Positions 4,062 to 54,762 of a stretch of 64,000 nucleotides of DNA are shown here, piece by piece. A program made the translations under genes and the position numbers. Positions within the stretch are counted from its first letter, which is position 1, and every line of letters starts with the position of its first letter. The DNA is from Octopus sinensis (taxonomy: Eukaryota). The stretch spans positions 5,084,001-5,148,000 of the forward strand of contig NC_043017.1 in assembly GCF_006345805.1 (NCBI RefSeq), read 5' to 3'. The notes below the pieces were generated by a model. That model ran no database searches. It had not been told where the DNA came from and worked only from the letters and a program-made list of their open reading frames with translations.

Positions 4062-4135
4062 TTTTTTTTTTCTTTTTTTCTCTTTGCAGGTAAGTTGACA
4101 ACTTCTCTCTATATCTCTGGGTCAATCAGGTAATA
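4062..4135 (+). other. Candidate recursive splice site (ratchet point) 1 with 40-nt cryptic RS-exon 4090-4129
   Basis: Long T-rich tract, TTGCAG|GTAAGT at 4089/4090, second donor CAG|GTAATA at 4129/4130; no AG between 4031 and 4087. Confidence 0.65.
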
Positions 4136-4803
4136 TAATATAATACATATCTATACATATATATATATAGTGTGAATGGATAAGGATATGAAATCCAGGC
4201 AGGTGGTACCTTACAAGTAACTATAGCATGATCCAATTTTTGGCTAACCAAATTGAATGAATTAAAACAAGGAGACCGTCCAGAAAAGTTGCAGGAGATT
4301 CCGAAGACGTCTGGAGGTCATAGTTGAATCCAATGTACCGCGATATCCTTTATGTTCTGTTTTTAATTGTATTTGTTATACACACACATGTGTATAGGTT
4401 TGGCAGAACAAACAGGAGAAATAGAACTCTCTACATCAGAATGTATATACTTTCTTATTTCTTATTTTTTAACTGATAGAAAGTTACCAAGGTGGCTCAG
4501 AAACCAAGAGTGTCTTGCATGGAATTTATGAAGCTTACTTTAAATCTGATAGTTCATTTCTTGTATTGATTGAATTTTAATTCTTTCTGGAATATTTGAT
4601 TAAAAATTAATTTTGGAGGGGGTCATGAGAAAATTGCAAATTTTCAAATAGACTGTCTGCTAAACAGAGAATAGTCTTGAGAGGAGATAAAGCTGTGTGT
4701 ATATACATATATATATTATATACATATTATATACATATATATATATATACATACACACACACATGCATATATATACATATGCATATATATATACATATAT
4801 ATA

Positions 4804-4872
<69 letters not shown>

Positions 4873-4925
4873 TATATATATATATATATACACACACATA
4901 TACATATATATATATATACACACAC

Positions 4926-4986
<61 letters not shown>

Positions 4987-5046
4987 TATATATATATATA
5001 CATACACACACATATACCTATATATATATATATATATATTATATAT

Positions 5047-5077
<31 letters not shown>

Positions 5078-5992
5078 ATATATATATATATATTATAATA
5101 TATATATATATATAATCTTCATCGTCATCATTATTTTAACATCCAATTTTCCATGCTTGCATATACACACAGAAATAGAAACATGTTACATTTTTATTTC
5201 TTTTCAAGATCACTCTCTGATTAACAGGAAGATTATTGAAAAATTTGCAATCCTCATGTGACCTTCATTTATTAATTTTTAATTTAGCATTCTAGAAGTA
5301 AAAAAAAAACCCTGTAATTTACTCTTTATAAGAAAGAGACTATCTACTTTGAAGTTAGTCTGATAAGTGGCAAGTACAAAACTCACTTCTCTTTGCACCA
5401 CTTTTGTAATTTCCGCTGATTAAAAATAAATAAGGTGTTTCTTATATAGGTAAAAAAAACCAAAAAAAAACCAAACAAGATGTATTAAGGTTGATGTGCA
5501 GGAAAATTGAAAGAATTGTTTAACGTTTGAAGTGAACATCTCGAAACAATGATGTGGTTGAGAATTTTGCTTCCCAATCTTGTACTTCGGGGTTTCAATT
5601 CCATTGTGTGGCACCTTGAGTCAGTGTCTTCAACTATAGCCCTAGGCGAACCAAAGCCTTGTGAGTGGATTTAGAAGGTGGAAACTGTAAGAAGCCTGTT
5701 ACATCTATGCATATATCCATATAACTATCTGTCTGTTGGTGTGTCTGTCTGCTTATTTGTTTATATGCTTCTATGGAAACAACAGATAAGAGAAAAAGGA
5801 CAGAAAAGAAATGTGTGTGTGTGTGTGTGTACATGCCCAAATATGGTATTGCTGTATTATTTCTTTTACTACTGGATGCTCTGTCGTATGCTAACCTTTG
5901 CCTGCTTTTGAAGTATTCCTCATGACTTCCAAGATATGAAGTGAACACACAAATCATTGACAGGAGAAATGCCATGAACAACACTGCTATAA

Positions 5993-6036
<44 letters not shown>

Positions 6037-6374
6037 ATGTGCACACACTTCAGAGGCTATTTTTTTTTTCAACTTCTGATATGAACTCATAAAAGTTATG
6101 GAATGGAAAATAGAATGAAATCTAATTACAGGATGTGATAAAAACAGGGAGTGCAGAATGTCTTTCAGCAAGAGTTTACATGCAAAGTATTTAAAATGAA
6201 AAGACAAATATAAACAAATAACTTCCCCTCATCAGCCATCAACTAAACTTTATTGTGGTTTTGAACACCTGTTAATGGGACTTCTCTGTAGCTGTAGTTA
6301 GAGCTATCAAAAATAAACCTTACAGAACAGGATAATAAAATAAAATAATCACAGGAACAGAACACAGTATACAC

Positions 6375-6416
<42 letters not shown>

Positions 6417-7475
6417 CAGTTAAAGTTTCTTCCATGGTAAGGTTTCATATGCAATGTTGTAGGTTGAAAAACTTTGATCAATTGAGATAATCCTAGTAAT
6501 TAATAGATAAAAACTCCCTCTAGGGTTATTTGGAATCTAAAAACCAAGCGAAGTAGATAATAACTCCAGTAAGGTCAGTTAATCGAAATTTTTCAACTCA
6601 CTGTATGTAATACCCTACTCTAATTCTGTTTAATATGCAGAATGTTCCCCTGAGGTGTTTTTCCTAAACCATATTGTTAAAATTGCATCTGGTTTTTATC
6701 TCTGCGGCTGGCAGCATATATTTGTAAACATGTTATTACAGTATATTTATGTTTATATGCATACATTCACAAACACATGTGTATGTGTGTGTGTGTGTGC
6801 ATGTGTGTCCATAACAATATAAAAGATACTTTCTCATATCCTGGAAGATAGCCAAACAAACACCAGTTATCAATGTAAAGACTTTATTGGGATGTAAACC
6901 ATCAGTCTGGTGGTATGATGACAGTAATGCAGCTTTATGCATCTCTTATCTCTCTCTCTCTTTTTTGCTTTCTTATTATCTCTCTTTCACGTTCTCTCTT
7001 TCCCTTTCTCATTATCTCTCTCATGCACTCACTTTCGCTCTCTCTCTCTTTCTCTCTCTCTCTATCTATCTTTCTCTCGTGTTATAGCTGGTAATAGAGA
7101 GAGATTGAGAGATCAGAGAAACTGATAGTAATTAACTGTATGGGTGTGTGTGTGTGAGAGAGAAAGAGACAGTAATTAACTGTTTGTGTATGAGAGAGAG
7201 CAAGTGGGCAAGTGGGAGAGAGAGAGACAGACAGACTGACAGAGAGAACAGAAGAACACAGAAGCAAAACCTTTTATTTTTTAACTGGGCAAAAATCAGA
7301 AAAAAATAATGAGAAAAAGTGCTGCACTAAATTTCCATAATTCTGATGAAAGGCAAAAACTGACCCAGATTTGAACTCAAATTGCAGAGATTCAAAACAA
7401 ATAGCACAGCACTTTCTATCTGATGTTCAAATGATTCTGCCACTTCTCCCCCTTATAAATACTACCACCACCACC

Positions 7476-7508
<33 letters not shown>

Positions 7509-7680
7509 TAACATTTCTTATGCATATCCACATTTATTTGAACTATTTGGTTATTTGAATTGACTATATATCTATCTATATATATATATCTATGTATATA
7601 TGTGCGTGTGTGTGTGTGTGTGTGTATAAATATGTATATATATGTGTGTGTGTATGTATATGTGTATATATATATATGTG

Positions 7681-7722
<42 letters not shown>

Positions 7723-7802
7723 TAGGGAGAGTTTACGAAAAAAACAAAATCTACCCGTAAATAATTGTTGGTTTTTTTTAAAATTAATAATTATTTACCC
7801 TT

Positions 7803-7848
<46 letters not shown>

Positions 7849-8233
7849 TACATACACATGTCACGAGATGGTGGTTTCAGTTCCTAGGCCAGATGGTGCG
7901 TTGTGTTCTTGAGCAAAACACTTCATCTCATGTTCCTCTGCGATCACTTTGGCACTTGAGCCACGGTACACCATGCACCTGTTCAGAAAATGTCAATTTC
8001 ACGGACGGAGTTTGATCACCATAAACAAATCCTTTATGTAGGTCGTTCAGCAAACCAGCTGAACACTCATACATCTTCGACGGGAGAGTCTGTCATATTG
8101 TTAATGAAATCATAAGCCTTCACTCTATATTGACAACAGAAAATAGTCTGATGTCAAAGCATAAAAATCCTCATAACATACTAATGCTCTTTGGAATTAC
8201 ATTCTCTACTATTATCATATATATATATATATA

Positions 8234-8453
8234 CCAATTAAGGACTGAACACGAAAAGTGGACAGTCAACATGCTAGATATAGACGTCAAATCGCCATTC
8301 TCCACAAAGATTATGTTCTCAAATAAAATAAAATTCAGCACAATTCAGCTGAATTTTATTTTATTTGAGAACATAATCTTTGTGGAGAATGGCGATTTGA
8401 CGTCTATATCTAGCATGTTGACTGTCCACTTTTCATGTTCAGTCCTTAATTGG
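8234..8453. repeat. Near-perfect 106-bp inverted repeat (8-nt loop) embedded in (TA)n
   Basis: 8234-8339 is the reverse complement of 8348-8453 with one CpG-type mismatch. Confidence 0.95.
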
Positions 8454-8541
8454 TATATATATATATTTTAATCTTCGTATTCTTTTTAATATGCTAGTCC
8501 ACTGGTTTTAATTGACTAATATCAATTTCTACCCTTAATTA

Positions 8542-8584
<43 letters not shown>

Positions 8585-8588
<4 letters not shown>

Positions 8589-8790
8589 AAAGGAATAGAA
8601 AAAAAACAACAATGCGAGGACATGGTACATTCAAAGTATTAATAAGACACTCAGGGAAGGAAAGAATGGGTGTTTTATGTTTCGAGCAAAGCTCTTCTTC
8701 AGGAACAGGAGACAGAGCAAAGTCCAAAAGAGGAGGAAGACAGAGGCAAAAAATCGCCAACAATCCACATGTAGTTACGTATGTTTATAT
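8585..8790 (-). mobile_element. Short (TA)n-inserted element with minimal hammerhead-like motif (Penelope-like derivative)
   Basis: Minus strand of 8671-8707: TGTTC CTGAAGA A GAGC TTT GCTC GAAAC ATA AAACA; homologous to 47175-47370 and 52160-52385. Confidence 0.65.
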
Positions 8791-9794
8791 ATAATGGTTT
8801 CATACATTGATATAGATCCATAAATTGGTAAGGATCATCACTGTGATTGCCGTGTTCTATGCTGGAGTGAGTTGAATGCTTCAACAGGATCTGACTAGCC
8901 TAAGGGCTGTTTTGGTTTCCATTGCCTGCTTTTGCAAGATCCCTCCAGCTGAATATCCTTCCTAGCACCACCTACTACAGAGTGTACTGGTTGCTTTTTG
9001 TTGTTAGAGCACCAGCACTAGTGGGTTACCAAGTAACATGCTAGACCCTTCAAAAAGTAGGGAGTGCAGAATAGGAAATGGAATTGTGCCAGGTGTTGAG
9101 AGAGACTAAAGTAAGATAAAGGGACAAGGGTGAGTGTCTTGCTGTAGAAGAAATACATGGGTACCCCAGTAGGAGAAAGGATGGTAGAGATGAGGACATA
9201 CTCTTAAGGTACAAGAAGGTGAGTAAAGAGAGAGCAGGAAGTGGGGGAGGAACATGCCTTTGTATTCTAAGTTCTAATCCTACTGGAATCGATATTGTCT
9301 TTTCTTCTGAGATTGATAGAATATATTTCAGACATAGAAGAGACATTAATGTGGGCAGGAAGAGAGAAACGGAATGGAATTTGTCAGAATTTACAATGGA
9401 ACTAGGTCACATGTCTTGTTTTTGAAAGCTTTGATTTAGCAGTTCATTAACAGCATTAATTAAATCTCTTCCAATCATTTTAGCTTGTAATTAATGGGTC
9501 TGTGATGGGGGAGAGACAGCGGAGGATAAGAGAGATGTTGTAGAAGCACCAGACGAAAATGTCTTTCAAAATCTAGCATGACCGGGTGGTTAAGAAGCTT
9601 GTTTTGGAACGATGTAGTCTGAAATTCGGTCTCACTGTACAGCACCTTGGGCATATTTCTTTCTACTATAGCCCTGGGTCAATCAATGTCTTATGAGTGG
9701 ATTTGATAGATGGAAACTTTGTGGAAGCCCATGCGTATATGTGTGTGTATAATGATATATGTATAGATTGTTTGAAGTGGTGTGCAAATTTTAT

Positions 9795-9935
9795 ATCTGT
9801 ATATATAAAGCTGAAGTTGTCTGTGTGTGTGTGGCAGGTTAGGTAGCCTTCAACTAACACTATCTCCTCCAAGACCCTGCGGTGCAAGTTGACCAAAATT
9901 GAAAGTATGAGAGAAGAAGGCTTGCTCTTCATTCT
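9795..9935 (+). mobile_element. Possible Helitron-like 5' fragment
   Basis: TCTGTATATATAAAGCTGAAGTTGTCTGTGTGTG start resembles non-autonomous Helitron 5' ends; no 3' CTRR hairpin seen. Confidence 0.35.
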
Positions 9936-10355
9936 GTAGAAAAAAAATCTTCTATATATATATATATGCAATGGGATTCTTCCAGTTTCCATCTACCAAA
10001 TCCACTCACAAGGCTTTGGTTGGTTCGAGGCTGTAGTAAAAGACACTTGCGCAAGGTACCACGCAGTAGGACTGAACTCAAAACCATGTGGTTGGGAAGC
10101 AACCTTCTTACCACACAGCCATGCCTGCGCCTATTTATTTATTTATTTATTTATTTAATCCAAAAGGGACAGCATAAAAAAAAGAATTTTATTTAGAGTT
10201 AATACTATAAAGTCAAAGGTTAGAAATATACTCATTGGTTTCTGTTGACCTCCAATAGTTAAGGGTCAAACTCTTGCAGATAACTTTAGAGAGTGTATCT
10301 TGACATTTAATATATTAGCTTTCACGTGATATTACGCATAACAAATACATCCATA

Positions 10356-10391
<36 letters not shown>

Positions 10392-10396
10392 TATAT

Positions 10397-10429
<33 letters not shown>

Positions 10430-10994
10430 TATATACATAGACATATATATATATATAGACACATACATACATATATATATATATTATATATATATATACA
10501 TGCACACAAATGCATGTGCATAGAGAAATATACATGCATATATGCACTGAAATGCAGATATGCACACGCACACAGGAGACCCCCACCCCCGGCTCCCCAT
10601 TCATTTTCAAATCTATTCGGTGGCAACAGTGAATAAAATATTATTTTCATTCTAAATGGATTAAAAAGACAATATGCAGGAGAGGGCGGCGGTGATGGTG
10701 GCACCAATATACCACCACCACCACCACCATCATCATCATCACAACCATCATCATCACCATGATCATCATCGTCATCACCTTCATCAGCATTTTGAAACAA
10801 GTTCCTGTTGATAACCTTCGTTATTAGAGAGCAAGTGCAATAATAAACAGCAATACGGTTCCCATGGTTACCAATGGTTAAATAATGGTTAGAAGGAAGG
10901 TTACCAAAATATTTTAAATGCGAGAGAAATGCTGTTGTTTCTTTCATTATTTTGCTTTATGTGTGTATGTGTGTATATATGTATGTGTATGTGT

Positions 10995-11038
<44 letters not shown>

Positions 11039-11497
11039 TGTGGGGGGGTTTGTTCATATCTCGTCTTTTGAGAATAAGGCTGTTTACTAATTTACTGATG
11101 AGTGACGATACCATTTATCCTCGTTTAATCAAGAGATAAGATAACGAAATAAAAGACAGAAAAAAGAGGTGGGACTCGTACTCTTAAATATTAAATGCTA
11201 ATTAGTAATATTTTTAATATCATATTGGCAACGAAGATCTCATCTAGAAGAATTAGAATAATAGAGGTGTGTGGGCGGGTGGGGGAGGTTGGGGTGGTGG
11301 TATTGGACATATTAATATTGGAACATTCTGGAAGTTTATATTTTATTTATATTTTGTCATCTAATTACGCTGACTCATCTGGAAATAAATCATCATCATC
11401 TTCGTTTAATAATGGCAATGTTTCCATTTTTGTTGGGGTTTAACACCTCTTTTTGGTACATTATTTGGCACTTTAATACTACTACTACTACTACTAC

Positions 11498-11719
11498 AAA
11501 GGTGGTGAGCTGGCAGAATCATTAAAATACCAGGCAAAATGCATAGCGGCATTTCATCTGTCTTCGGGTTCTGAGCTCAAACTCTGGCGTGGTTGACTTT
11601 GCCTTTCATCTTTTCTGGGTCGATAAAATAAATACCAGCCAAGCACTGGGGTTGATGTAATCTACTTGTCCCCTCCCACGAAATTGCTGGCCTTGTGCTA
11701 AAATTTGAAACCATTATTA

Positions 11720-11761
<42 letters not shown>

Positions 11762-11990
11762 TATTATTATTATGACAAAGGCAGCGAGCAGGTAGAATCA
11801 TTAGCATGCCAGGCAAAATACTTAGTGATATTTTATCTGTCTTTATGTTCTTGGTTCAAATCTTATTGTAGTCAACTTTGCCTTTTAACCTTTTGGGGGT
11901 CAGTCAATTAAGTACCAGTGAAACACTGGGGTCAATGTAGTCAACTAGTCCCCTCTCCCCAAATTTCAGGCCTTGTGCCTATAGTAGAAA
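11498..11990 (+). mobile_element. Two adjacent copies of SINE family S2 separated by (ATT)n
   Basis: AAGGYRGYGAGCTGGCAGAATC...GACTTTGCCTTTCATCCTTT...GGGGTC consensus at 11498-11712 and 11778-11990. Confidence 0.9.
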
Positions 11991-12104
11991 GTTTACTCAG
12001 CTGGCAAAAATGAGTCGCACCTGTAATTCAAAGGGACAGCCTTGCCACATTCCACTTCACGCTGAATCTCCCTGAGCGAATTATCAGCCGTACAGGCAAA
12101 TTAA

Positions 12105-12410
12105 TAAAATATATACATACAATATTAGATATGTACATATATACACAAGGGTAGTACATGAGTACCTATATCGCTAATGATAGATTAGCGAAACCGGTAC
12201 CGAGTTGACCAGCATTTACTTGTTCTGACCCATTTGATGTAAGACATTATTATTGTTCACTGATATTTTTTCCTATCTTGTCTGTAATAGATTTGTGACT
12301 ATTTGGTGGTACAGAAGTATTTTTTGACTTCTATCATTAGTGATATAGGTACTCATGTAGTACTCTTGTGTATATATGTACATATCTAATATTGTATGTA
12401 TATGTTTTAT
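12105..12410. mobile_element. Inverted-repeat element (about 80-bp arms, about 145-bp spacer) next to (TA)n, with degenerate hammerhead-like motif
   Basis: 12105-12184 pairs with 12330-12410; CTAATGA TAGATTAGC GAAAC CG GTA at about 12174-12199. Confidence 0.7.
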
Positions 12411-12430
12411 ATATATATGTATATATATAC

Positions 12431-12555
12431 CAACCACATGGTTCCGGGTTCAGTCCCCTGCGTGGCACCTTGGGCAAGTGTCTTCTACTATAGCCTCGGG
12501 CCGACCAAAGCCTTGTGAGTGGATTTGGTAGACGGAAACTGAAAGAAGCCCGTCG

Positions 12556-12627
<72 letters not shown>

Positions 12628-12853
12628 TGTGTGTGTTTGTGTGTCTGTGTTTGTCCCCCTAGCATTGCTTGACAACCGATGCTGGTGTGTTTATGTCCCC
12701 GTTACTTAGCGGTTCAGCAAAAGAGACCGATAGAATAAGTACTGGGCTTACAAAAGAATAAGTCCTGGGGTCGAGTTGCTTGATTAAAGGCAGTGCTCCA
12801 GCATGGCCGCAGTCAAATGACTGAAACAAGTAAAAGAGTAAAAGAGTAAAGAG
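12431..12853 (+). mobile_element. SINE family S1, nearly full length, with internal (TA)n
   Basis: Near-identical to 23565-23965; ends GACTGAAACAAGTAAAAGAGTAAAAGAG. Confidence 0.92.
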
Positions 12854-13421
12854 TATATGTATGTATGCATGTATGTATGTATGTATGTATGTATGTATCA
12901 AATATTAACCAAATTTCTGATTGATATTTGATACGAACCAATTGTGTAGAATTTGGGGATGTTTAAATGAATATTTCTGCAAGCAGAAACTTTTGAATGT
13001 GTTATTGTAATGATTTCAGATACAAACTCTTGTTTAGATCTGCAATATAGAAAATATTGATTCTTTATAGATCTATTGATCTCTAATAGACCAATTTCTA
13101 TCAATAAATACTCACATGATTGATTTTTTACTGCTGTTCAGCATTCCTACTTTAGACATTGCTGCACTGGGATTATTTTTGATAGGTTTTTTTTTTGTTT
13201 GGCGCAGGGCCGGCGGGGGGGGGGGTACAAATCAGTGGAGCATTTTGGTATTTGTGAAACATGGCAGTGTGGTTAAGAAGTTTGATTTCCAACCTGGTGG
13301 TTTGGGTTCAATTCCCCTGTGTGGCTCCTTGGACAAATAAAATGTCTTTTGCTATACTCTCAGGTTGACTAGATCCTTGTGAATAGATTTAATAGATGGA
13401 AACTGAAAGAAGCCTGTCACA

Positions 13422-13461
<40 letters not shown>

Positions 13462-13682
13462 AGTTCAAACTCTGCCGAGGTGAACTTTGCCTTTCATCCT
13501 TTGGGGGGTTGACAAAATGAGTACCAGTTGAGTATTGGGACCAATGTAATTGAATAATCCCCCTCCCCTCAAAATTTCAAGCATTATTGTCAAAGTTAGA
13601 AAGAATTATTATAGCTGTTGATAAAGCGGCAAGCTGGCGGAATCGTTAGCACGCTGGTGGTTCAAGTTCTGCTGAGGTCAAC

Positions 13683-13725
<43 letters not shown>

Positions 13726-13726
13726 G

Positions 13727-14195
13727 AGTGAGAGAGCAGTGCATGCCATCAAAGTGACACTGGGGTAAAATATACGAAGCCCAGTATACCCATCATGACT
13801 ACCCGTCTGATAAGGGTACACTAGGCACATGCATCACAACCATATGTGCGCGACATGGTGATCTCATATCAAGATAAACAGCACATGACCTTGTAGGTGG
13901 GGCCCAGTTAGGATTTTCTTCTGGTCGAGTAGCCCATCCCGCTCAAAAGGTCCCTAATAAGGGTTGTTTAAGGATGTTGAACGAACCACCCATGTTTCCA
14001 GAGGTGAATTATTCAAACCCCAAAGAATCCCTCTCAACACATGGCTATGATGCTCCCCCACTACTTCTGCTCGTGATCAGAGATGCACATACCGTGGGCC
14101 ACTAAGGGACATGCTCAACTGGTTAAGGTCAAACAACTGACAAGCAAATCTGTGGTACTGAGCAGAATATTTGCTGTAGCCCATCTTTTATACCA

Positions 14196-14196
<1 letters not shown>
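13727..14196 (-). mobile_element. Interspersed repeat family S4 inserted in (ATT)n
   Basis: High identity to 21972-22522; both flanked by (ATT)n; fragments at 21728-21760 (opposite orientation) and 58545-58650. Confidence 0.85.
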
Positions 14197-14241
<45 letters not shown>

Positions 14242-15703
14242 GTCATCATTATTATTTGTTTTTCTTTAATATTGTTTCCATTTTTGCTGAGTGCTTCCCT
14301 GATGCTTAGGGCAAAGAAACTTGCTGTATACATTGATAAGCTACTAAAATAAACACACCAGATGTTTTGCAAAACTCAAATAGAGTTATATAAAGACAAA
14401 AAAATCATTATTATTAAAAACAGTGAGCTGTCAGAATCATTAACACACCAGGTAAAATGCTTAACGGGCATTTAGTCTGTCTGTACATTCTGAGTTTAAA
14501 GGGATGATCTCTGCCTCTCATCCCTTTGCAGGTTGATAAACTATGTACCAGTTGATTGCTGGGGGTCGATGTAATTGACTGTCCTGTCCTGCCCTGAAGT
14601 TGCTGGTTTTATATCAAAATTTGAAACCGTTGTATGCAACTGGTACTTAATTTCTCTACCCCGAAAGGATGAAAGGTCGACTTTGCCTTTCATCCTTTCG
14701 GCATTAATAAATTAAGTACCAGTTGTGTACTGGTTCAATCAAATCAATTGGCTCCCTCCCACCAAAATTTTAGGTCATGTGCCTATTGTAGAAAGAATTA
14801 CGCTTCATAATCTTCTACTTATCATTATTATTATTGTTAGATTTTTTTCTGCTGGGATCGACTTTGCCTTTCATGTTTTCAGAGTCAATAAATTAAGTAC
14901 CAGTGAAACACTGGGGTCGATGTAATCAACTAGTCCCCTTTCCTCAACATTTCAGGCCTTGTACCTATAGTATGGGGTCAATGTAATTAACTGAACCCTT
15001 TCCTTGAAATTGCTGGCCTTGTGCCAAAATTTGAAACCACTCTTCTTCTTCTTCTTCTCCTCATTATTATTATTACACTGGGCAAAATGCTTGGCGGCAT
15101 TTTGTCCGTCTTTACATTCTTTACATTCTGCTGCGGTCCACTTTCATCCTTTCAGGGTCGCTTAAATAAGTAGCAGTTATGCACTGGGGTCAATGTAATC
15201 GACTTAATCCCTTCCCCCAAAATTTGAATCCTTGTGTTTCCAGTAGAAAGGATTGTTATCATCATCATCATCATCATCATCATCGTTATTATCATTATTA
15301 TTATCATTTCAAAAAATGACTAAGTATATACTCTTGCCTACTTTATAGCATACACTCTTACACCCCCTCCCTCTCTCCTGCTCTCACTTTTTCTCCCTCT
15401 CTCTCACACCCACACACCTATACACACATACGTACACATACTAATTAACCCACAGTAAAGTACCTGAAGCAGCTTACATCCACATTAATCTTAAACATCA
15501 CTTCGTCATAATTGGCTTCTCATAGGGGTGCGCATCGTATGGCACCGGTGGTGGTGAAGGGCTTATAAGTGGCCAATTACTATCATCATTATTATTATCA
15601 TTATTATTATTACCACCACCACCACCACCACCATCATCATCATCATTATTATTAATCATTGAATTAATTTCCCTCCTTTGCCCCCCCTCCTGCGGCCTTG
15701 CAG

Positions 15704-15837
15704 ACCCAAGTATGACACGGCAAAGTCTTCAGTTCCTTTCTATCATTTTACCAAAGCCAGTCTCCTAACAACATGTCTTGCTACCTCGATCTTATCTATT
15801 CTATTCATAGAGTTGCCAATCTTGATTGGCTCTTAAC
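15704..15837 (+). CDS. Candidate 134-nt exon; its only open frame encodes PKYDTAKSSVPFYHFTKASLLTTCLATSILSILFIELPILIGS-stop (GPI-signal-like tail), or it is a UTR exon
   Basis: Pyrimidine tract TTTCCCTCCTTTGCCCCCCCTCC...TTGCAG acceptor at 15703, donor AAC|GTAAGT at 15838, unique sequence between repeats. Confidence 0.45.
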
Positions 15838-16257
15838 GTAAGTTGGTCTTGTTGTTGTTGTTGTTACATGTTTTCGTTATTGCTGATTGTTTTTTTTTGT
15901 TGTAGTTTTTTTGTTGCTATTTCTAGAATTTTTATTCCATTTTTGCCCATATATGTCTTTATATATACATACATATATATATATATATGATGATGATGAT
16001 GATGATATTATTGTGAGGATATAGATTCCTCTCAAAAGGAATATGTACATATATATATATATATGTACACACACACACGCACACACGCACACACACACAC
16101 ACACACACACTTCTGTTCACCTAAGTGTGATTCTGTGTGGCTGTTACATAAATTTATTGAAATTATCAAAATGTTATTACATATACATATATACACATGT
16201 GTACGTGTATATAAGGGGGAGAGAAAGAGGAAACACTAAAAACACACACATAAACAC

Positions 16258-16298
<41 letters not shown>

Positions 16299-16530: not shown

Positions 16531-16565
<35 letters not shown>

Positions 16566-17330: not shown

Positions 17331-17386
<56 letters not shown>

Positions 17387-41780: not shown

Positions 41781-41782
41781 AC

Positions 41783-41821
<39 letters not shown>

Positions 41822-42654: not shown

Positions 42655-42716
42655 ATGAAAATCGCTGAAATGGGAATTGTTCCCAGAAATGGTTACTGTT
42701 CGACGGGGAAGAAAAG
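42655..42716 (+). CDS. Speculative alternative first coding exon, MKIAEMGIVPRNGYCSTGKK(R/S), phase 2
   Basis: AAAATG start context with in-frame upstream stop, donor AAG|GTAACT at 42717, inside a CpG-retaining unique region. Confidence 0.25.
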
Positions 42717-43002
42717 GTAACTCTTTATATGGAAAATCGACACACACGCACTTTGTGTGTGTACCCTTGCATGCATGTATTTATATACAAACCTATGTAT
42801 AATATATATCTGTATAATTATATATACGTGCGTGCGTGTGTGTGATTATATACGTTCATATATACACTCGTGTATTTTACGTAAAGCATGCATTGAGGGG
42901 AGGCATTCTTTTTATCAGCTATCGATTAGAGATTAACTCCAGTTTCGGCATCTTCTGATCTCTCTCCCTCTTCCTCCCTTCCCCTCTCTCTCTCTGTATG
43001 CC

Positions 43003-45258
43003 TATCTATCTATCTATCTATCTATCCATCCATCCATCCATCTTTCTCTTTCTCTCTCTCTATCTGTATACCTATCTATCCATCCATCCATCCATCTTTC
43101 TCTCTCTTCGTACGCACACACTCACACGCGCAGATGTACGTACATCGGCACAAATACGCGCGCGCTCTCTCTCGTGCGTATTATGTGCGTGCATTGATGT
43201 ACGTTGTGTGAGTGTGTCTGTGTTTGTATTGGTGATGTGTGTGTGTGTCTGTGTTGGTGAAATATAAACATCAAAGATACTTTGCCTCGGGCTGAAACTG
43301 CTGGAGTTACATAAAGATGTTGCAACCTCTTGTGTGTTTGTGTATATGCATCTTTTCCATTTGATCTATCTTTCAGTGTGTATGTGTGTATGTGAGTGTG
43401 TGTGTGCACGCGAGTGCATTCATACATACGCGCGCACACCCACACACAACTTGCTAACGCTCATACACAAAAGTGCACACACATACACCTAACATGCAAG
43501 CATGCACAGACACAAAACCGCACGCACACACACAAATATTCACACACCTGCACACACACACATACACACAACAGACACATACACACAACAGACACACACA
43601 CATACACACACACAACAGACCCGAGCGCGCACATTGTTTTATCTCGCTGAAATTATTTCCCATCCATCTACCTTACACTATCATAAATGAAATAGCTACC
43701 ACAATTTATCTACACAAGCGAAATATATTCCGTTTTATATTTTTACATTAAAATTTTTAAAACTGAAAAATTTCTAAAATTTATTATTTTAGAAGTGTTT
43801 TTCGCTTTTTTTTTTTTTTTTTCTATGTCAATTAACGACAACGAAACGAAATCAATTAATGTTGTCACTTATGAAATACAGAGTAATTCCCCTTGCACTG
43901 ACGCTTCGTAATCTGAGGCAAAAATTAAAGAAATTTTAAAGGGAAATCAAGGAATTAAGAAGGAAAAGAAGTTTAGAATCTACCCATTTATTTGTTTAAT
44001 GTGTTTTGCTTGTTTGTTTACCAATTAAGAAGTTCTTCAAATGTTTGCTGGTGTGTGTATATCTGACTGTCTGTCTATCAATCTCTCTATCTGTCTATTG
44101 TTCTGTCTGTGTGTCTGACTGTCTGTCTATCTATCTATCTATCTATCTATCTATCCATCCATCCATCCATCTTTCTCTTTCTCTCTCTCTATCTGTATAC
44201 CTATCTATCCATCCATCCATCCATCTTTCTCTCTCTTCGTACGCACACACTCACACGCGCAGATGTACGTACATCGGCACAAATACGCGCGCGCTCTCTC
44301 TCGTGCGTATTATGTGCGTGCATTGATGTACGTTGTGTGAGTGTGTCTGTGTTTGTATTGGTGATGTGTGTGTGTGTCTGTGTTGGTGAAATATAAACAT
44401 CAAAGATACTTTGCCTCGGGCTGAAACTGCTGGAGTTACATAAAGATGTTGCAACCTCTTGTGTGTTTGTGTATATGCATCTTTTCCATTTGATCTATCT
44501 TTCAGTGTGTATGTGTGTATGTGAGTGTGTGTGTGCACGCGAGTGCATTCATACATACGCGCGCACACCCACACACAACTTGCTAACGCTCATACACAAA
44601 AGTGCACACACATACACCTAACATGCAAGCATGCACAGACACAAAACCGCACGCACACACACAAATATTCACACACCTGCACACACACACATACACACAA
44701 CAGACACACACACACACAACAGACACACACACATACACACACACAACAGACCCGAGCGCGCACATTGTTTTATCTCGCTGAAATTATTTCCCATCCATCT
44801 ACCTTACACTATCATAAATGAAATAGCTACCACAATTTATCAACACAAGCGAAATATATTCCGTTTTATATTTTTACATTAAAATTTTTAAAACTGAAAA
44901 ATTTCTAAAATTTATTATTTTAGAAGTGTTTTTCGCTTTTTTTTTTTTTTTCTATGTCAATTAACGACAACGAAACGGAATCAATTAATGTTGTCACTTA
45001 TGAAATACAGAGTAATTCCCCTTGCACTGACGCTTCGTAATCTGAGGCAAAAATTAAAAAAATTTTAAAGGGAAATCAAGGAATTAAGAAGGAAAAGAAG
45101 TTTAGAATCTACCCATTTATTTGTTTAATGTGTTTTGCTTGTTTGTTTACCAATTAAGAAGTTCTTCAAATTTTTGCTGGTGTGTGTATATCTGACTGTC
45201 TGTCTATCAATCTCTCTATCTGTCTATTGTTCTGTCTGTGTGTCTGACTATCTGTCTG

Positions 45259-45260
<2 letters not shown>
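43003..45260. repeat. 1129-bp near-identical tandem duplication
   Basis: ORF pairs 43122/44251 and 44006/45135 are offset by 1129; junctions in (TCTA)n. Confidence 0.95.
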
Positions 45261-45337
<77 letters not shown>

Positions 45338-45490
45338 GCCTGTCTGTCTGCCTGTCTGTCTGCCCGTCTGTCCGTCCGTCCGTCTGTCTGTCAGTCTATC
45401 TATTTATCTATCTATATATCCATCTGTCTGCCTGTCTGTCTGTCTGTGTGTCCGTCCGTCCGTCCGTCCGTCTGTCTATCTATCTATCTA

Positions 45491-45556
<66 letters not shown>

Positions 45557-45622
45557 CGTCCGTCCGTCCGTCCGTCCGTCTGTCTATCTATCTGTCTGTC
45601 TGTCTGTCTATCAATCTATCCA

Positions 45623-45656
<34 letters not shown>

Positions 45657-45737
45657 AGTCTATCTATTTATCTATCTATCTATCCATCTGTCTGTCTGTC
45701 AGTCTATCTATATCTATCTATCCATCTATCTATCTCT
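45245..45737. repeat. Compound tetranucleotide array (TCTA/TCTG/TCCG)n
   Basis: Direct inspection. Confidence 0.95.
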
Positions 45738-46550
45738 CAATTCATTCAACTAAAATCCCTTTAAAGCAGTGCTCCAGCATGGCTGCAGTCATTAGACTGA
45801 AACAAGTAAAAGAATAAGAGAATATGATGTGTGTGAGGTCACATGGCCTAGTGGTTAGTGTGTTGCATTCATGATTGTAAGATTGTGGTTTCAATCCTTG
45901 GCCCAAGCGGTGTGTTGTGTTCTTGAACAAAACACTTCACTTCACATTGCTCTGTGATCACTCTCTGACACCTGAAACCTGGTACACTGCACACCTGTTC
46001 AGGTAACAGTAGTTTAATGGAAGGTGTGGGCTGATGTGCGGCACTTCAGACAAAATCCTCTGTGCAGATTGTTCTCTTCGATTGGAGGTGTGGCTGTGTG
46101 GTTAACCAGTTTGCTTCCCAACCACATAGTCTTGGGTTCAGTCCCACTGTGTGGCAATCTCAGCGAGTGTTTTCTGCTAAGGCCCTGGACTCACCAAAGC
46201 CTTGTGAGTGGGTTTGCAGTGTATGCGTGTGTGTGTGAGTATGTGTGTGTCTCCTTGTCTTCAGACTGCTTGATAATTGTAAATGATTGTCGCCATCGTA
46301 CAAGTAGAGTCATTCCTTTACCATATTCTGCAAGAAACATGTCTTGCTGTGGGTAATCTATAAATGCTCTAACAGCCTTGGTTTTTTTTATCTCATTATG
46401 AAATATAATTTTTATATACACATGCTAACATATGACCAATGTTGGACCCCTTATTCGCAAAATCACCGAACCTGGAACTTAACTGCGGTCCATCTATAGC
46501 ACTTATTCAGCATTACCTGACACCTTTGGGTCTCAATGATACCATTATCT

Positions 46551-46587
<37 letters not shown>

Positions 46588-46692
46588 TTATCAGTAATAA
46601 AATGGGGTAAAACTAATTAATTTGGAATAATCAATTAATTTCACCAAGTAGATTTCAGCATGTAAAAGCCCCATTCGAGGAAAGTTTAAGTA

Positions 46693-46960
46693 ATACTAAG
46701 TAATTAAGGGTTTAGCAACGATTTGCCTCACCACACACCGAATTTAGAAATAGCAGTCAAATAGTTATAGCTATTCCTTCTACTAAAAGGGAGATCTCAG
46801 TAAAACCACAGCACTTGAAAGGCGAACACAAAGCCTTTCAAGTGCTGTGGTTTTACTGAGATCTCCCTTTTAGTAGAAGGAATAGCTATAACTATTTGAC
46901 TGCTATTTCTAAATTCGGTGTGTGGTGAGGCAAATCGTTGCTAAACCCTTAATTACTTAG

Positions 46961-46963
<3 letters not shown>
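46693..46963. repeat. Perfect 131-bp inverted repeat with 9-nt loop, right part of a (TA)n-inserted element starting at about 46586
   Basis: 46693-46823 is the exact reverse complement of 46833-46963. Confidence 0.95.
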
Positions 46964-47002
<39 letters not shown>

Positions 47003-47012
47003 CATATATATA

Positions 47013-47080
<68 letters not shown>

Positions 47081-47174
47081 ATATATATGTATATATATAT
47101 AATATATATATTGTGTGTGTGTATATATATATATATATGTGTGTGTGTTATATATATATATATATATATATATA

Positions 47175-47370
47175 AAGTTAATCCCATCAAGAAAGCACAA
47201 AAAAACACAACAACGCGAGGACGTGGAACAAATATAGTATTATTGGACGCTCAGGAAAGAAGGAAAGAAGGAGGGTTTAACGTTTTGAGCGGAGCTCTTC
47301 GTTGGAAACATAGGAGAAGGAAAGATCCCGAGAAGGGAAGACAGAGGAAAAAAAATTGCCAACATTTACA
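47175..47370 (-). mobile_element. (TA)n-inserted hammerhead-like element, subfamily B
   Basis: Minus strand of 47275-47310: TGTTT CCAACGA A GAGC TCC GCTC AAAAC GTT AAAC. Confidence 0.6.
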
Positions 47371-47594
47371 CACGAGGTCCGTGCTGAAAAGTTTTTGGCT
47401 TTAAGGATATTGCGAAAGCCCTGGTCGGAGGCCCAACCTTCTGAGTTCTTTTAAGAGGGCTTAGAAAAACTGAAGGACCACTGCAATGAGTGTGTGAATC
47501 TGCGAGAGGAATATGTGGGATAAAATCATAATTCACTGATCTTCATGTATTTTCTTTTACCGAAACCCAAGAACTTCCCTGCCCCGCTTCTGTA
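47371..47594 (+). mobile_element. Mariner-derived miniature element retaining the transposase C-terminus
   Basis: Degenerate TIRs (CGAGG..GTGCTGAAAAGTT / AACTTCCCTGCCCC..GTA); internal frame EFF*EGLEKLKDHCNECVNLREEYVG-stop resembles mariner FYxxGIxKLxxRWxKCVxxxGxYVE. Confidence 0.75.
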
Positions 47595-48387
47595 TATATA
47601 TATGTATACACACCACAATCCGCTCATGTTTGCTGTTGTATATTTTATATTTAATCTGCAATGTTTACCCATCGTTCGTTCAGTGTAAGAAAGCATCAAC
47701 ACTCTCACAGTGGTGGACTTTCACTCTGTTTATATTTCTGAACAAATATTTAATTCTGTTTAAAATATTTGTTTGGTTTTGTTCTTGATAACAGGAAGTC
47801 AATTTGGTGGTTCATGGCCCACTTTTGATTTCAATTTCGTTATTTATCTCTCTTTTAAACGTTTTGTTTTCCTTGCTTTAGTCATTGAACTCTGGCCATG
47901 CTGGGGCACCACCTCGAAGGGTTTAGTCAAATAAATCAACCCCCTCAAGTACTCATTTTATGAAATCTGGTACTTATTCGATTGACCTCTTTCACTGAAC
48001 CATTGAGTCACAGGGATGTAAGCAAAGCAGCACCAGTTGTCCAGAAATGTGTGGGTGGGTCAAATACCCACCACACACACACACAAACAAACATATACAT
48101 GCCTGTATGTAACAGGCTATTTTTCAGTTTTGATCCACCAAATTCACTCCCAAGACATCGGTCGGCCCAAGGCTATAGTAGAAGACACTTGGCCAAGGTG
48201 CTGACCAAAATGAGCTTCTTGACCACACAACCAGTGCAAATATGAATACGTTTGTTGATTGGTGGGAGGTGGGAGAGTGAGAGAGTGGGATGAGCTAATC
48301 ACATGCTGTTGTGTGTGTGTGTGTGTGTGTGTTATTATGCATCCGTTCCCCCATCACCACACAGTTGCAAGTGGTATATAAAAAAAA

Positions 48388-48800
48388 GCGAGCTGCAGAA
48401 TCGTTAGCACGCCGGGCGAAATGCTTAGCGGTATTTCGTCTGCCGTTACGTTCTGAGTTCAAATTCCGCCGAGGTCGACTTTGCCTTTCATCCTTTCGGG
48501 GTCAATAAATTAAATACCAGTTACGCACTGGGGTCGATATAATCGACTTCATCCGTTTGTCTGTCCTTGTTTGTCCTCTCTTTGTTTAGCCCCTTGTGGG
48601 CAGTAAAGAAATAGGTAGTTCGTCTGCCGTTCCGTTCTGAGTTCAAATTCCACCGAGGTCAAGTTTACCTTTCATCCTTTTGGAGTCGATTAAATAAGTA
48701 CCAGTTACGCACTGGGGTCGATATAATCGACTTAATCCGTTTGTCTGTCCCTGTTTGTCCCCTCTAAGTTTAGCCCCTTGTGGGTAGTAAAGAAACAGGT
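48388..48800 (+). mobile_element. Tandem pair of young SINE S2 copies
   Basis: Consensus-like with CpGs intact; the second copy is 5'-truncated and directly follows the first. Confidence 0.9.
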
Positions 48801-49905
48801 ATATAAAAAAAAGGGGACAGAGCTCACTTGATTCCACTCCTATCCACCCACTATTTGAATTCCTCAGGCTGCTAATACCTCTGTGAAAGGCATGAACATC
48901 ACACCTTCTCGTTAATTCATTTATTTGTGACTCTGTGCTGACATAATCTTTCTCTTTCACCTCTTTCTCCCCCTCTCTCTTTTTCTCTGTGTCTTTTTCC
49001 CTCTCATTCCTTCTGTCTCTCTCCTACCCTCTCTCTCTTCCTCTGCATTTCCTTTCTCTTTCTCCATTCCACTCTTTCTCTCTCCCACTCTCTCTCACCC
49101 CCATGCCTCTCCCCTACTCCTCTCTCCTCTCTCTTTATCTCTTCCTCTTGTTGCCCTCTCTCTCTCTCCTCACCTATATATACAGAACACTTTGGTTTCC
49201 TAGCTTTATACGCTAAAATGATTGAAGCAATTAGCCTTACCTCCTAAATAACCAGTTAAATATTGCATCCACTCTGTTAGATATTCAGTTAAATGTATAT
49301 CTAAATAGGTTATACATACATATATGTGTATATACATACATATACACATGTATATAACTGTATATACACAAGAGTGAATTACACTTTAGTGCTTGTTTCG
49401 CGAGTGATTTCACAAAAGTAATTGTGAGGCCAATTTCCTCAAAGTACTCGTTAAATAGACAAAGTACTTGTTAAATAGTGACTCTTTTCTTAACCCTTTA
49501 TCATTCAGATTGTAATGTTTATTTATCTAAATTGCTTTCAATTAATTATGCAAGTTTTGCTGATGCGGTTGTTAGTTCTTAGACTGACATTGTAGGTCAA
49601 GTGTGATGGGTCAGATCTGTTAACCCCTTACCGTTCAGATTTCTTTCTGTCGAATGTGATGCTTATTTATTCACATTGCTTTGGATTAATCATTCATTAT
49701 CACTTTCTCAGCTTTGAGATTTCAATGATGTGATTGTCTATTTTTAAAATGACAATGCAGTGTAGTGGGAGAGGTCATGTCTGGCTGGTTTGAACCTAAA
49801 ATAGGCCAGTTTAACTGTTCTGTCAAGGTTTCTACAGCTAGATGCTTTGCCTAATGCCAACCACTTTACAGTGTGTTCTGAGTGACTTTTACATGGCATA
49901 TTATA

Positions 49906-49948
<43 letters not shown>

Positions 49949-49971
49949 CATATATATATATAATATATATA

Positions 49972-50150
49972 TAAGGGGAGAGTTCACAAAAAAACAAAAG
50001 ACGAAGACAGGTGGTGTAGACAACAAACAGATGTATTAGTATAACACTCGGGAAGTGAAAAAAGTCTTTAATGTTTCGAGCATACACTCTTCCACAGAAA
50101 GGAACATAGAAAGGAGAGAAAATAAAGAATGTGTAGTGGCTAGCAATCTA
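49972..50150 (-). mobile_element. (TA)n-inserted hammerhead-like element, subfamily A
   Basis: Minus strand of 50066-50101: CTTT CTGTGGA A GAGT GTAT GCTC GAAAC ATT AAAG. Confidence 0.62.
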
Positions 50151-50205
50151 TCGTGGGGAAACGCCACACATCCATTTCCAAGTTCACGTATATATATACA
50201 TATAT

Positions 50206-50242
<37 letters not shown>

Positions 50243-50430
50243 GTATAAGGCAGTAAGCTGGCTGAAATGCTTAGCGGTATTTCGCCTGTTGCTATGTTCT
50301 GAGATCAAATTCTGCTGAGGTCAACTTTGCCTTTCATCTTTTCGGGGTCAATAAGATAAGTACCAGCAAAACACAAGGATTGAAGTAATTGACTTGTCCT
50401 CTCCCCAAAATTTCAGGCCTTTGCCTATAC

Positions 50431-50648
50431 CAGTGCTTTTCAAACTTTTTGCTGGAGCGGAACCCCAAGGAAACATTCCACTGGCTCGGGGAACCCCTGT
50501 GCAATAATTTAATAGTCTTATGCACACATATCTGCACAGGAGAATTAAAAATTACTGCCGATTCTAGCAGTTTTGTAACTTCTTGCGGAACCTCTGGACT
50601 GTACTGGTGGAACCCTAGGTTCCGTGGAACCCTGGTTGAAAACCACTG
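50431..50648. mobile_element. hAT-type MITE nested in a SINE S2 tail
   Basis: TIRs CAGTGCTTTTCAA / TTGAAAACCACTG; perfect 8-bp TSD GCCTATAC at 50423-50430 and 50649-50656. Confidence 0.92.
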
Positions 50649-52159
50649 GCCTATACACACACACACAAACACACACAATGGGCTTTCGCATACTTTCCAT
50701 TTACCGAATTTGCTTACAAGGTATTGGTCAACCAGGGGCTGTAGTAGAAAGCACTTGCCCAAGGTGTCATGCAGTGTAACTGATCCTAAAAGCATGTTCT
50801 TGAAAAGATGATGTGTCCCCTAGTCATTAGGATGTCACACTGACGATCAGGGTTTCAATCCCTGGACTGGGCAGTGCCTTGTGTGTTTGTCCCAAACATT
50901 TCATTTCTTGTGTTCTCTCAGCTGTGAGTGAATTCCAACAGTAGCTGGGAAGTTAACTCTGTGAAGGACCAGTGTCCCATCCAGGGAGTACTCTCAGTTA
51001 ATCATATTCCAGTGGATCTGGCTTAGGGTCTAGCCTCATGAGTCCTATGACTCGTGATAGATTCAAGTCCTAAATGCCAAATGTTATAATATGTAACGTG
51101 TCACCTAGGACAGAATATGTGTCTTGAATTTATAAAAAGCTTTTAAAAATATTTCGATAGGCAGACAATGACAAACGTTGATTGTCCTGTGTTCTTGTGT
51201 GTATTTCATTGACTCTGGTGGGATTTGAACTCCAGGCATGGCTGTGTGATGAAGAAGGTTACTTTATGACCAAATGTCTTCAGGTTCAGTCCCACTGCAT
51301 GGCACCTTGGGGAGAGTGTCTTCTACAATAGCCTTGAACCTACCAATTCCTTGTGAGTGAGTTTGGTCAGTGGAAACTGTGTAGAAGCCTTTTGTGTTTT
51401 ATTCTGTCTGTGTGTGTGTGTGTGTGGTGTGTGTGTGTGTGTGTGCGTGTGCACACGGCTTATGGCTAAATCAGGAAAAATATCAATTCTGATAATGCAG
51501 CCCTAGATAAACTGACTAAATAACAAGGTGGGATGGTCGTGTTTGGAGTGTCTTTGATCTAATAAATGCCATCAAGAATATTTCAGCCATTTCTTTTCTG
51601 TTTTTTTTTTATATTTTGTTTTAAGTTTTCTTGTTTCGCTTTTTGTTTGTTTTTGTTTCAAATAATTATACTTAATGTAAAAAAAAAAGAAGCTTCCTTG
51701 TTGTTTTGGTGGGTTTTTTGTTGTTTGTTGTTTGTTTTACATTTATACATAGGACTGAAGTGATTTTAATTATCTTGTTTAGCTGAGTAGCGTGTGTGCA
51801 TATGTGTGCGTGTGTGTGTGTATATGCATATATATAATATATATATATATATGTACATATATACACACACACACACATTATATATATACATGTATATATA
51901 TACATATATAATGTATATACATATATATACATATATATACATATATAATGTATAGACATATATATACATATATAATATATATACATATATATACATATAT
52001 ATACATATATATTATATACATATATACATATGTATATACATATATATACATATGTATATACATATGTATTTATATGTATATACATATGTATTTATATATA
52101 TACATATGTATATATATATATATATATATATAAATTATATATTATATATATATATATAA

Positions 52160-52385
52160 TTTTATCCAAAAGGGAAACAAAAAAAAACAACAAACAACAG
52201 GAACAATTTACAGTATGATTATTAATAGGCGCTCAGGAGATGGAAGCAGGGAGGTATGACGTTTCGAGCGGAGCTCTTCGTCGGAAAACATAAAGAAGGA
52301 AAGAGAGAAGAAAGATCCCAGAGCGGGCAACAGGGAAAGAGAAAAAGACGACTGGTTGTTTACGAGTTGCACATGGTGAAAGGCG
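52160..52385 (-). mobile_element. (TA)n-inserted hammerhead-like element, subfamily B
   Basis: Minus strand of 52254-52290: TGTTTT CCGACGA A GAGC TCC GCTC GAAAC GTC ATAC. Confidence 0.62.
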
Positions 52386-52423
<38 letters not shown>

Positions 52424-52972
52424 TATAATATATATATATTATAAAATATTCATACATATTTCATCACTTTCAATGAAATTCTTAATTATTTCAAAACATT
52501 TTACATTTATTTGGCATTTCCATTAATTTTACGAACTTTTCTTAGAAATTTCAACTATTTTCATGGCAGAGTTTGTTATTCCAACACATATCTACTTCTA
52601 TTCTAAGGTTGGTAGGGGCCTCAATATTTTTGACATTGTGGTACGTTAAGAGATAAGATAGCAAGAATTTTGACCCCTAGGGAGAGAGAATATAACAAAA
52701 GTCCTTTTTTAAATTTTAACTTTCTTTCAGTTATTGAACTGCGGCCATGCTGGGGCACTCTCATGAAGGGACTTTAGATATAAATTGACCCCTGTACTTA
52801 TGTTGTATGATGTTGGCTTTTTTTGTTTCTTTTTAAATCTGGCACTTAGTCTGTCTGTTTTTTTTACCGAACTACTAATTTGTGGGGACATAAACAAACA
52901 AACATAGGTTGTCAAGCAGTGGTTGTGAACAAACAGAAACACACACACATACATACATATCTGTTTATTAAC

Positions 52973-53567
52973 ATGGATTGACTAGATAGGGAATTAAGAA
53001 AGAGAACAGGGGCTGAGCTTGATGTGGACTGACTAGGGGCTGAACTTGGTGTGGACTGACTAGACAGGGAGTTAAGAGAAAGAACAGGGGCCAAGCTTAC
53101 TGTGGACTGACTAGACAAGGAGTTAAGGGAGAGAACAGGAGCCAAGCCAAATGTGGTCTGACTAGACAAGGAGTTAAGAGGGAGAACAGGGGCTGAGCTT
53201 AATGTGGACTGACTAGGGGCCGAGTTTGATGTGGACTGACTAGACAGGGAGTTAAGAGAAAGAACAGGGGCCAAGCTTACTGTGGACTGACTAGACAAGG
53301 AGTTAAGGGAGAGAACAGGGGCCAAGCCAAATGTGGTCTGACTAGACAAGGAGTTAAGAGGGAGAACAGGGGCTGAGCTTAATGTGGACTGACTAGGGGC
53401 CGAGTTTGATGTGGACTGACTAGACAGGGAGTTAAGAGAAAGAACAGGGGCCAAGCTTACTGTGGACTGACTAGACAAGGATTTAAGGGAGAGAACAGGG
53501 GCCAAGCCAAATGTGGTCTGACTAGACAAGGAGTTAAGAGGGAGAACAGGGGCTGAGCTTAATGTGG
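52973..53567. repeat. Higher-order tandem repeat: 180-bp unit = 51+51+51+27 bp subunits, about 3.3 copies
   Basis: GTGGACTGACTAG-anchored subunits; the 180-bp units are near-identical while subunits within a unit are diverged. Confidence 0.95.
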
Positions 53568-54320
53568 TTGATTTGCATTTATGAATGTTTGAAGTTTATT
53601 AGTTTGGGAAGGGGTAAATGCAGAAGGAAGGGTTATACACAAAACGTGTTGGTGGTGGTGGTGATGTTGGCGGTGGGCCCTCATAAAGAAAACTGTTTTG
53701 TGGGGTTTGAAAATTAAGTCAAGTGGTGGTGGTGGGTGGTGGAGGAGAGATTTTGATGCAGAAAGGATGATGGCTATATGGGTAGGAATATTGGCAATAT
53801 AAGAAGGTAGGGTCGTATGATTAAGAAGCTTGCTTTGCATCACATGGTCTTGGGTTAGTTTCACTGCCCAGCATCTTGGGCAAGTGTCTCCTATTATACA
53901 CTCGGACCAATTTGGTAGATGGAAACTATGTTGAAGCCCATTGTAGGTAGGTGTGTGTCTTTGTGGTTGTGATTGTCTCATTACCACCACTGCTTGACAA
54001 CTGGTATTGGTTTATTTACATCCCCATAACATAGCGGTGTGGCAAAAGGGACCAACAGAGTAAGTGCCAAACTTAAAGGAAAATATACTGGGTGGGTGGG
54101 AGGGGTGCAGATTGTTTGACTAAAAAAAAAACCGTCAAGGCAGTGCTCCAGCATGGCTGTAGTCCAGTGACTGAAAATGGGTAAAAAGATAAATGAAAAG
54201 TCGAGGTTAATGTTGTAGATGTGGAAAGAGAGAGAGAGTGAGATAAAGAAACACAGAGACAGACAAACAGAAACACAGGCAGACAGGCTGAGAGAGAGAG
54301 AGACAGAGAGAGACAGACAG

Positions 54321-54359
<39 letters not shown>

Positions 54360-54680
54360 GGAAGAGAGAGAGAGAGAGGAGAGAGACAGAGAGAGAGACA
54401 GACAGGGAAGAGAGAGAGAGAGAGACAGAGAGAAGACACAGACACAGAGAGAAAGAAAGACAGTGAAAGACAGACAGAGATGACAGCTTATTTCTGAGAA
54501 ATGGTTGCAAAGAACCAGCTGTTCTGTCTGGGAAATAGATTTTTATTTTAAATATATGGTTATATTTTTATATAATTATATATATTTTTTCATTATATAT
54601 TCAACCATATTTTCATAAAAATAAAACTCATTTGACTATTTCAGCAAAATATTTTATTTCTTCAAGAAATTGTACATTTT

Positions 54681-54762
54681 CTAATCCCTGTCTTTTTTTT
54701 TTCTTTCTCTTTTGCAGGTGAGTATTCAATATTTTTACAAGTTTCAATGAGACCAGGTAAAA
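54681..54762 (+). other. Candidate recursive splice site (ratchet point) 2 with 39-nt cryptic RS-exon 54718-54756
   Basis: Branch-point-like CTAAT at 54681-54685, about 28-nt pyrimidine tract, TTGCAG|GTGAGT at 54717/54718, second donor CAG|GTAAAA at 54756/54757. Confidence 0.68.

Follow-up and report, generated by a model that had tools for sequence, protein, structure and literature searches.

How an intron of several hundred kilobases is removed is the question raised by a 64,000-nt stretch of the Octopus sinensis genome (G000:C21:5084001-5148000; hereafter the window), in which two plus-strand sites each place a strong acceptor directly in front of a consensus donor. The initial annotation of this stretch had proposed the two as paired candidate recursive-splicing ratchet points inside a giant plus-strand intron. 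On the features set out below, these sites and a third one beyond the window are probably ratchet points, which would allow a 287-kb intron of the nGAP gene to be taken out stepwise, as four pieces measuring 51-81 kb. Sites are numbered here by the GT of the regenerated donor.

The sequence 200 kb to either side of the window was examined for host exons, and the expected plus-strand giant intron was found. The whole window (1..64000) lies inside a phase-2 intron of 286,774 nt (G000:C21:5007113-5293886, plus strand) of a SynGAP/DAB2IP-type RasGAP gene (nGAP), also on the plus strand. Pfam PH_RASGAP is matched in two parts, positions 9-34 by an exon 77 kb upstream of the window and positions 50-120 by one 146 kb downstream, so that this intron splits the PH domain; a later downstream exon gives RasGAP and SynGAP matches. 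The protein P0001 (NCBI 'ras GTPase-activating protein nGAP isoform X5 [Octopus sinensis]') agrees letter for letter with both flanking exons and joins them directly.

The architecture first described at 4090 and 54718 (pyrimidine tract, TTGCAG, consensus donor and a CAG|GTAA at +40 and +39) holds at both positions. The acceptor half of site 1 (4031..4089, plus strand) comprises a 57-nt AG-free zone (4031-4087), a tract in which 20 of the 20 upstream positions are pyrimidines (17 T), and TTGCAG|GTAAGT, with the GT at 4090. Behind it lies a predicted cryptic recursive-splicing exon (RS-exon) of 40 nt (4090..4129, plus strand), which opens with the regenerated donor GTAAGT, would bring an immediate in-frame stop if included, and is followed at +40 by a second donor, CAG|GTAATA (4130..4135, plus strand). 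Site 2 is built alike: its acceptor half (54667..54717, plus strand) has a 49-nt AG-free zone (54667-54715), 20/20 pyrimidines (17 T), and TTGCAG|GTGAGT with the GT at 54718, and its predicted RS-exon of 39 nt (54718..54756, plus strand) opens with GTGAGT, carries the same immediate in-frame stop if included, and is followed at +39 by the donor CAG|GTAAAA (54757..54762, plus strand). The two second donors score 3.3 and 3.5 bits, respectively; these and the regenerated-donor scores given below come from an approximate generic matrix, and their comparison is a lead rather than a measurement. A branch-like motif, CTAAT, places its A at 54684, 34 nt before the site 2 junction, and the acceptors of the sites equal or exceed in strength the real acceptors of the nGAP gene. 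YAG|GTRAG occurs six times on the plus and three times on the minus strand of the window, with a strong tract at sites 1 and 2 only, so that the minus strand holds no equivalent, as had been stated. The site 1 stretch has no second match in G000 in a search that passes over simple repeats; a repeat begins just behind its second donor, and the rest of the window consists of simple and dispersed repeats.

To call these sites a pair was correct in that both are real, and an understatement in that the intron holds three. The third site, of the same build and on the same strand, lies outside the window, 79 kb past site 2 (G000:C21:5217553), and has branch-like motifs at -31/-27. AG-free zones of 49-76 nt precede all three sites, which together cut the intron into 80,977, 50,628, 78,835, and 76,334 nt. 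With a loose cut on acceptor strength, GTRAGT followed 3 of the 64 acceptor-like sense sites in the intron (0.04 expected, P = 1e-5) and 0 of 69 on the antisense strand; with a stricter cut, set afterwards, it followed 3/3 sense and 0/2 antisense sites. These intron P values are inflated, because two of the three sites were the reason for choosing the window. The unbiased part of the statistics is site 3, which was found blind, together with the genome-wide counts.

Across the genome, 866 sites with this strong acceptor continue as GTR, and 57 of them read Y16-N-CAG-GTRAGT in full, compared to 12.9 expected from a local 464-kb background in which AGT follows GTR in 1.5% of cases (P = 5e-20), as the initial annotation had anticipated. 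Its GTRAGV counterpart occurs 36 times, and the resulting AGT:AGV ratio of 57:36 stands against a local 0.52:1 (P = 1e-7). A reversed-pattern control (6 vs 57) was judged weak, and the GTR and GTRAGV counts were used in its place. A Y11 pattern gave 140 matches genome-wide, and neighbouring pairs were tested among the first 100 of these, with one pair 1 kb apart left out and chromosome spans taken from the largest coordinate among the sites. Nine pairs lay 5-300 kb apart, compared to 1.65 expected (P = 5e-5), and all nine were on the same strand, as were 31 of the 69 pairs more than 1 Mb apart. Addition of one further set of sites gave 11/11 near pairs on the same strand. Of 78 loci compared, two form a duplicate pair and three are copies of one small repeat family; the others share little beyond the motif. 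The family (L182, L190, and L196) is dispersed and carries a pyrimidine tract followed by CCAG|GTGAGT, and it is a possible source of new ratchet-like sites.

A peak of donors at about +40 had also been predicted, and such a peak was found at +30..80 and replicated in a second set of loci. The first set, 30 of the 57 strict loci, held 9 donors of at least 4 bits in this interval where the flanks predicted 0.96; the second, of 48 separate loci (18/18 of one group and 30/37 of another), held 15 where 1.7 were expected. The antisense counts for the same interval were 1 (30 loci) and 0 (48 loci), and counts at +10..30 and +100..200 were at background level. None of the five loci that make up the duplicate pair and the three repeat copies, all among the 48, has a donor of this kind.

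The placement of sites on the sense strand, observed in the nGAP intron (0/69 antisense), extends to a second giant intron. Two sites on C2 (G000:C2:204276747 and 204326347; L090:6747 and L095:6347) lie in sense orientation in a PDE3 gene, 113 and 162 kb from the start of its first intron (257,938 nt), which has no antisense site, and an O. vulgaris protein joins the exons flanking that intron directly. On C12, a minus-strand ladder (6402801 [L211:2801], 6497244, and 6632319), with steps of 94 and 135 kb, may mark an unannotated or very long intron. At C8:57.41-57.68 Mb, two minus-strand sites face one strong plus-strand site within 400 kb (L114:4924, L127:1090, and L140:8798).

The nGAP intron also contains five alternative first coding exons, three of them within the window, where the initial annotation had none. 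On the plus strand of the window, the coding part of the isoform X7 first exon (P0015; 15773..15837) ends in the phase-2 donor AAC|GTAAGT at 15838, that of isoform X8 (P0006; 42655..42716) in the phase-2 donor AAG|GTAACT at 42717, and that of isoform X4 (P0007; 60884..61068) in the phase-2 donor CAG|GTGAGA at 61069. The remaining two lie beyond the window (G000:C21:5031459-5031556 and 5250666-5250700), and the peptide of the last is common to relatives P0002 and P0003. All five are phase 2, are joined to the same downstream exon, and truncate the PH domain. The three short first exons of the window were detected through protein records only. The analysis covered 15 of the 19 members of the P0001 cluster, which are protein models blind to decay-sensitive isoforms and non-coding exons; in none of the 15 does an exon start, end, or become included at a site. 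Splicing of any upstream exon into a site would read at once as T-stop or R-stop.

Several other features of the locus were recorded. A further upstream exon (G000:C21:4889785; L003:5785-5929) matches relatives P0004 and P0005 and is unused by the listed O. sinensis isoforms; the nGAP gene may therefore extend further 5'. A 30- or 16-residue cassette that these relatives carry at the same junction had no convincing octopus match (best E 0.18, minus strand). At least six units of a 31-nt tandem repeat at G000:C21:4921340-4921526 (L006) carry TAG|GTAAGT together with a weak pyrimidine tract. Within the window, open reading frames of at least 100 aa are translations of simple repeats, and repeated open-reading-frame translations point to apparent local tandem duplications of ~1.13 kb (about 42960-43460 and 44070-44590) and ~344 nt (about 36120-36820).

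Apart from the competition between donors, the sites match an intronic ratchet point in every sequence-level feature tested, and the route they would support is as follows. By analogy to flies and vertebrates, the strong acceptor and the second donor would together define the short cryptic exon (40 or 39 nt), and the upstream exon would be spliced to the AG of the site while transcription continues. This step would regenerate exon|GTRAGT, a donor that would then be joined to whatever comes next, be it a further ratchet point or a genuine exon. Onward splicing from the regenerated donor would leave nothing of the site in the mRNA; use of the cryptic donor instead would yield a message reading xxG-TAA/TGA, with nonsense-mediated decay as the predicted outcome. 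Besides the main upstream exon, four of the five alternative first exons that the intron contains would share the ladder. It is likely, judging from the three sites and the motif statistics, that the octopus removes giant introns stepwise as flies do.

Several observations weigh against this reading. Site 3 has no donor of at least 3 bits within 200 nt (best 2.65 bits, at +107), and the 70 nt upstream of site 1 contain no YTRAY branch motif. On the rough generic matrix, the regenerated donor of the main upstream exon scores 3.15 bits, which is not above the cryptic 3.3 and 3.5. Among all 78 loci, only 27 have a donor of at least 3 bits at +30..80. The 76-kb and 41-kb upstream intervals of nGAP contain no strong site, and the first PDE3 piece would be 113 kb long. 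Host exons were found for only 2 of the 5 clusters examined; none was found at C8:57.4-57.8 Mb, C8:24.18-24.38 Mb, or C12:6.3-6.5 Mb (200-400 kb each) with an exon finder that overlooks short, AT-rich, or weak-donor exons. The C12 stretch also holds two weaker plus-strand sites, addition of the GTRAGV set brought one opposite-strand pair into the near pairs (13/14 on the same strand), and the background rates behind the genome-wide expectations are local (464 kb) rather than genome-wide.

The least improbable alternative is that the pieces of 40 and 39 nt act simply as poison cassette exons that trigger decay, their GTRAGT start being kept as a stop and never spliced again. All upstream exons are phase 2, so that each site reads as an immediate stop; where the upstream exon ends in AAC, the cryptic donors score level with the regenerated one; and short exons of any kind should show a peak of donors downstream. 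However, although G-TAA/TGA alone would provide a stop, the enrichment of the motif extends to +6 (AGT in preference to AGA, AGC, and AGG), which is the consensus that pairs with U1. In addition, a poison exon does not account for site 3, which is without a good second donor, and does not predict the near-even spacing of the sites across the intron.

We consider it quite improbable that sites 1-3 act as simple donors for non-coding first exons missing from the annotation, or for long non-coding RNA exons, with 3' ends that are T-rich by chance. Five alternative first exons do exist in this intron, and CAG|GTRAGT as it lies in the genome is a perfect donor (8.85 bits). Yet the donors of the five annotated first exons all lie elsewhere, in protein records that are blind to non-coding exons, and neither an AG-free pyrimidine tract of 49-76 nt, found three times, nor a second donor 30-80 nt behind the motif genome-wide is expected of such donors.

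Equally slight is the prospect of chance or repeat-derived motifs that are unused in splicing: the genome is T-rich, AT-rich, and rich in simple repeats and microsatellites, ~13 of the 57 strict matches are expected anyway, and the 78 loci include a duplicate pair and three members of one small repeat family, but the remaining loci have little in common beyond the motif. Four results each exceed chance by far: the agreement in strand, the clustering of sites, their sense orientation in two giant introns, and the donor peak that recurred in a second set of loci.

Ratchet points remain the preferred reading of sites 1-3, and a broader claim can be built on them that we put forward only tentatively and regard as doubtful: that the octopus has a genome-wide, fly-like system with steps of 50-140 kb, several times those of the fly, and that the nGAP ladder, used by five upstream exons, is at the same time a promoter-specific switch. 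Behind the three exons that end in AAC, the regenerated donor would score 3.15-3.17 bits on the generic matrix, compared to 7.9 behind the AAG exon and 8.85 behind the CAG exon. Under such a switch, an AAC ending would yield a weak regenerated donor, with leakage into the cryptic exon and its stop, an AAG or CAG ending would yield a strong one, and promoter choice would set the share of message lost to decay. The nGAP locus offers a natural test of donor competition, in which the same three sites lie behind upstream exons with differing last bases, and the list of sites marks the strand and extent of giant genes for annotation.

Experiments have established recursive splicing in flies and vertebrates, and counts of the motif have extended it to sea urchin and further insects. 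If the present reading is true, a fly-like mollusc system with cryptic RS-exons would add a third large bilaterian branch and would argue that the exon-definition route is ancestral. The fly gene FBgn0261570 is putatively CG42684/raskol, a relative of the nGAP RasGAP, and its intron may or may not be orthologous to that of nGAP. A ratchet point in raskol, if true, would hint at an old bilaterian habit of the gene family. The supplement to PMC6110457 gives FBgn0261570 a medium-confidence recursive site in a 25-kb intron.

The closest likeness is to Drosophila, where intronic ratchet points with cryptic RS-exons are described in Ubx, kuz, Bx, and luna (PMC8605326; 10.1101/006163; PMC6110457). 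The octopus sites share with them the (Y)nCAG|GTRAGT motif in very long introns, several per intron, on the sense strand, and absent from annotated mRNA, as well as a short cryptic exon with a downstream donor (about 50 nt in flies and 40/39 nt here). Fly branch points are placed at -36 to -21 in 10.1101/006163, and among the octopus sites such motifs occur at -34 in site 2 and at -31/-27 in site 3. Unlike those of Drosophila, the octopus sites are predicted from sequence, and their regenerated donor is not favoured after AAC-ending exons on the rough matrix. The octopus pieces are also longer: fly recursive pieces are given as 2.6-63.6 kb with a mean of 18 kb, and three of the four octopus pieces of 51-81 kb exceed the longest of these. 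Since octopus introns are vertebrate-sized, steps of 50-80 kb are relevant to the question of whether larger genomes take longer steps.

With vertebrate RS-sites, as described in PMC5126111 and PMC8605326, the octopus sites share very long introns, a premature stop upon RS-exon inclusion (predicted in the octopus), and two donors that would compete. Mammals differ in number: only nine fully suppressed sites are noted in PMC8605326, whereas strict patterns give the octopus an excess of between several dozen, at the least, and >100 sites, which is nearer to insects and sea urchin. Enrichment of combined acceptor-donor sites (RP-sites) in large introns is reported for fly, mosquito, bee, beetle, and sea urchin in PMC2773006, and the sense-over-antisense excess given there for introns >50 kb parallels that of the octopus. 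Those five invertebrates include no mollusc or other lophotrochozoan, and the passages of PMC2773006 on them do not deal with a downstream cryptic donor. We found no report of recursive splicing in octopus, cephalopod, or mollusc in a search that left most subscription journals outside, so that absence from print is unproven. The description of these sites as a candidate undescribed system goes too far, given that recursive splicing is known from flies and vertebrates and its motif enrichment from four insects and sea urchin. What is new here is the phylum, a mollusc, and the locus; the mechanism is already known.

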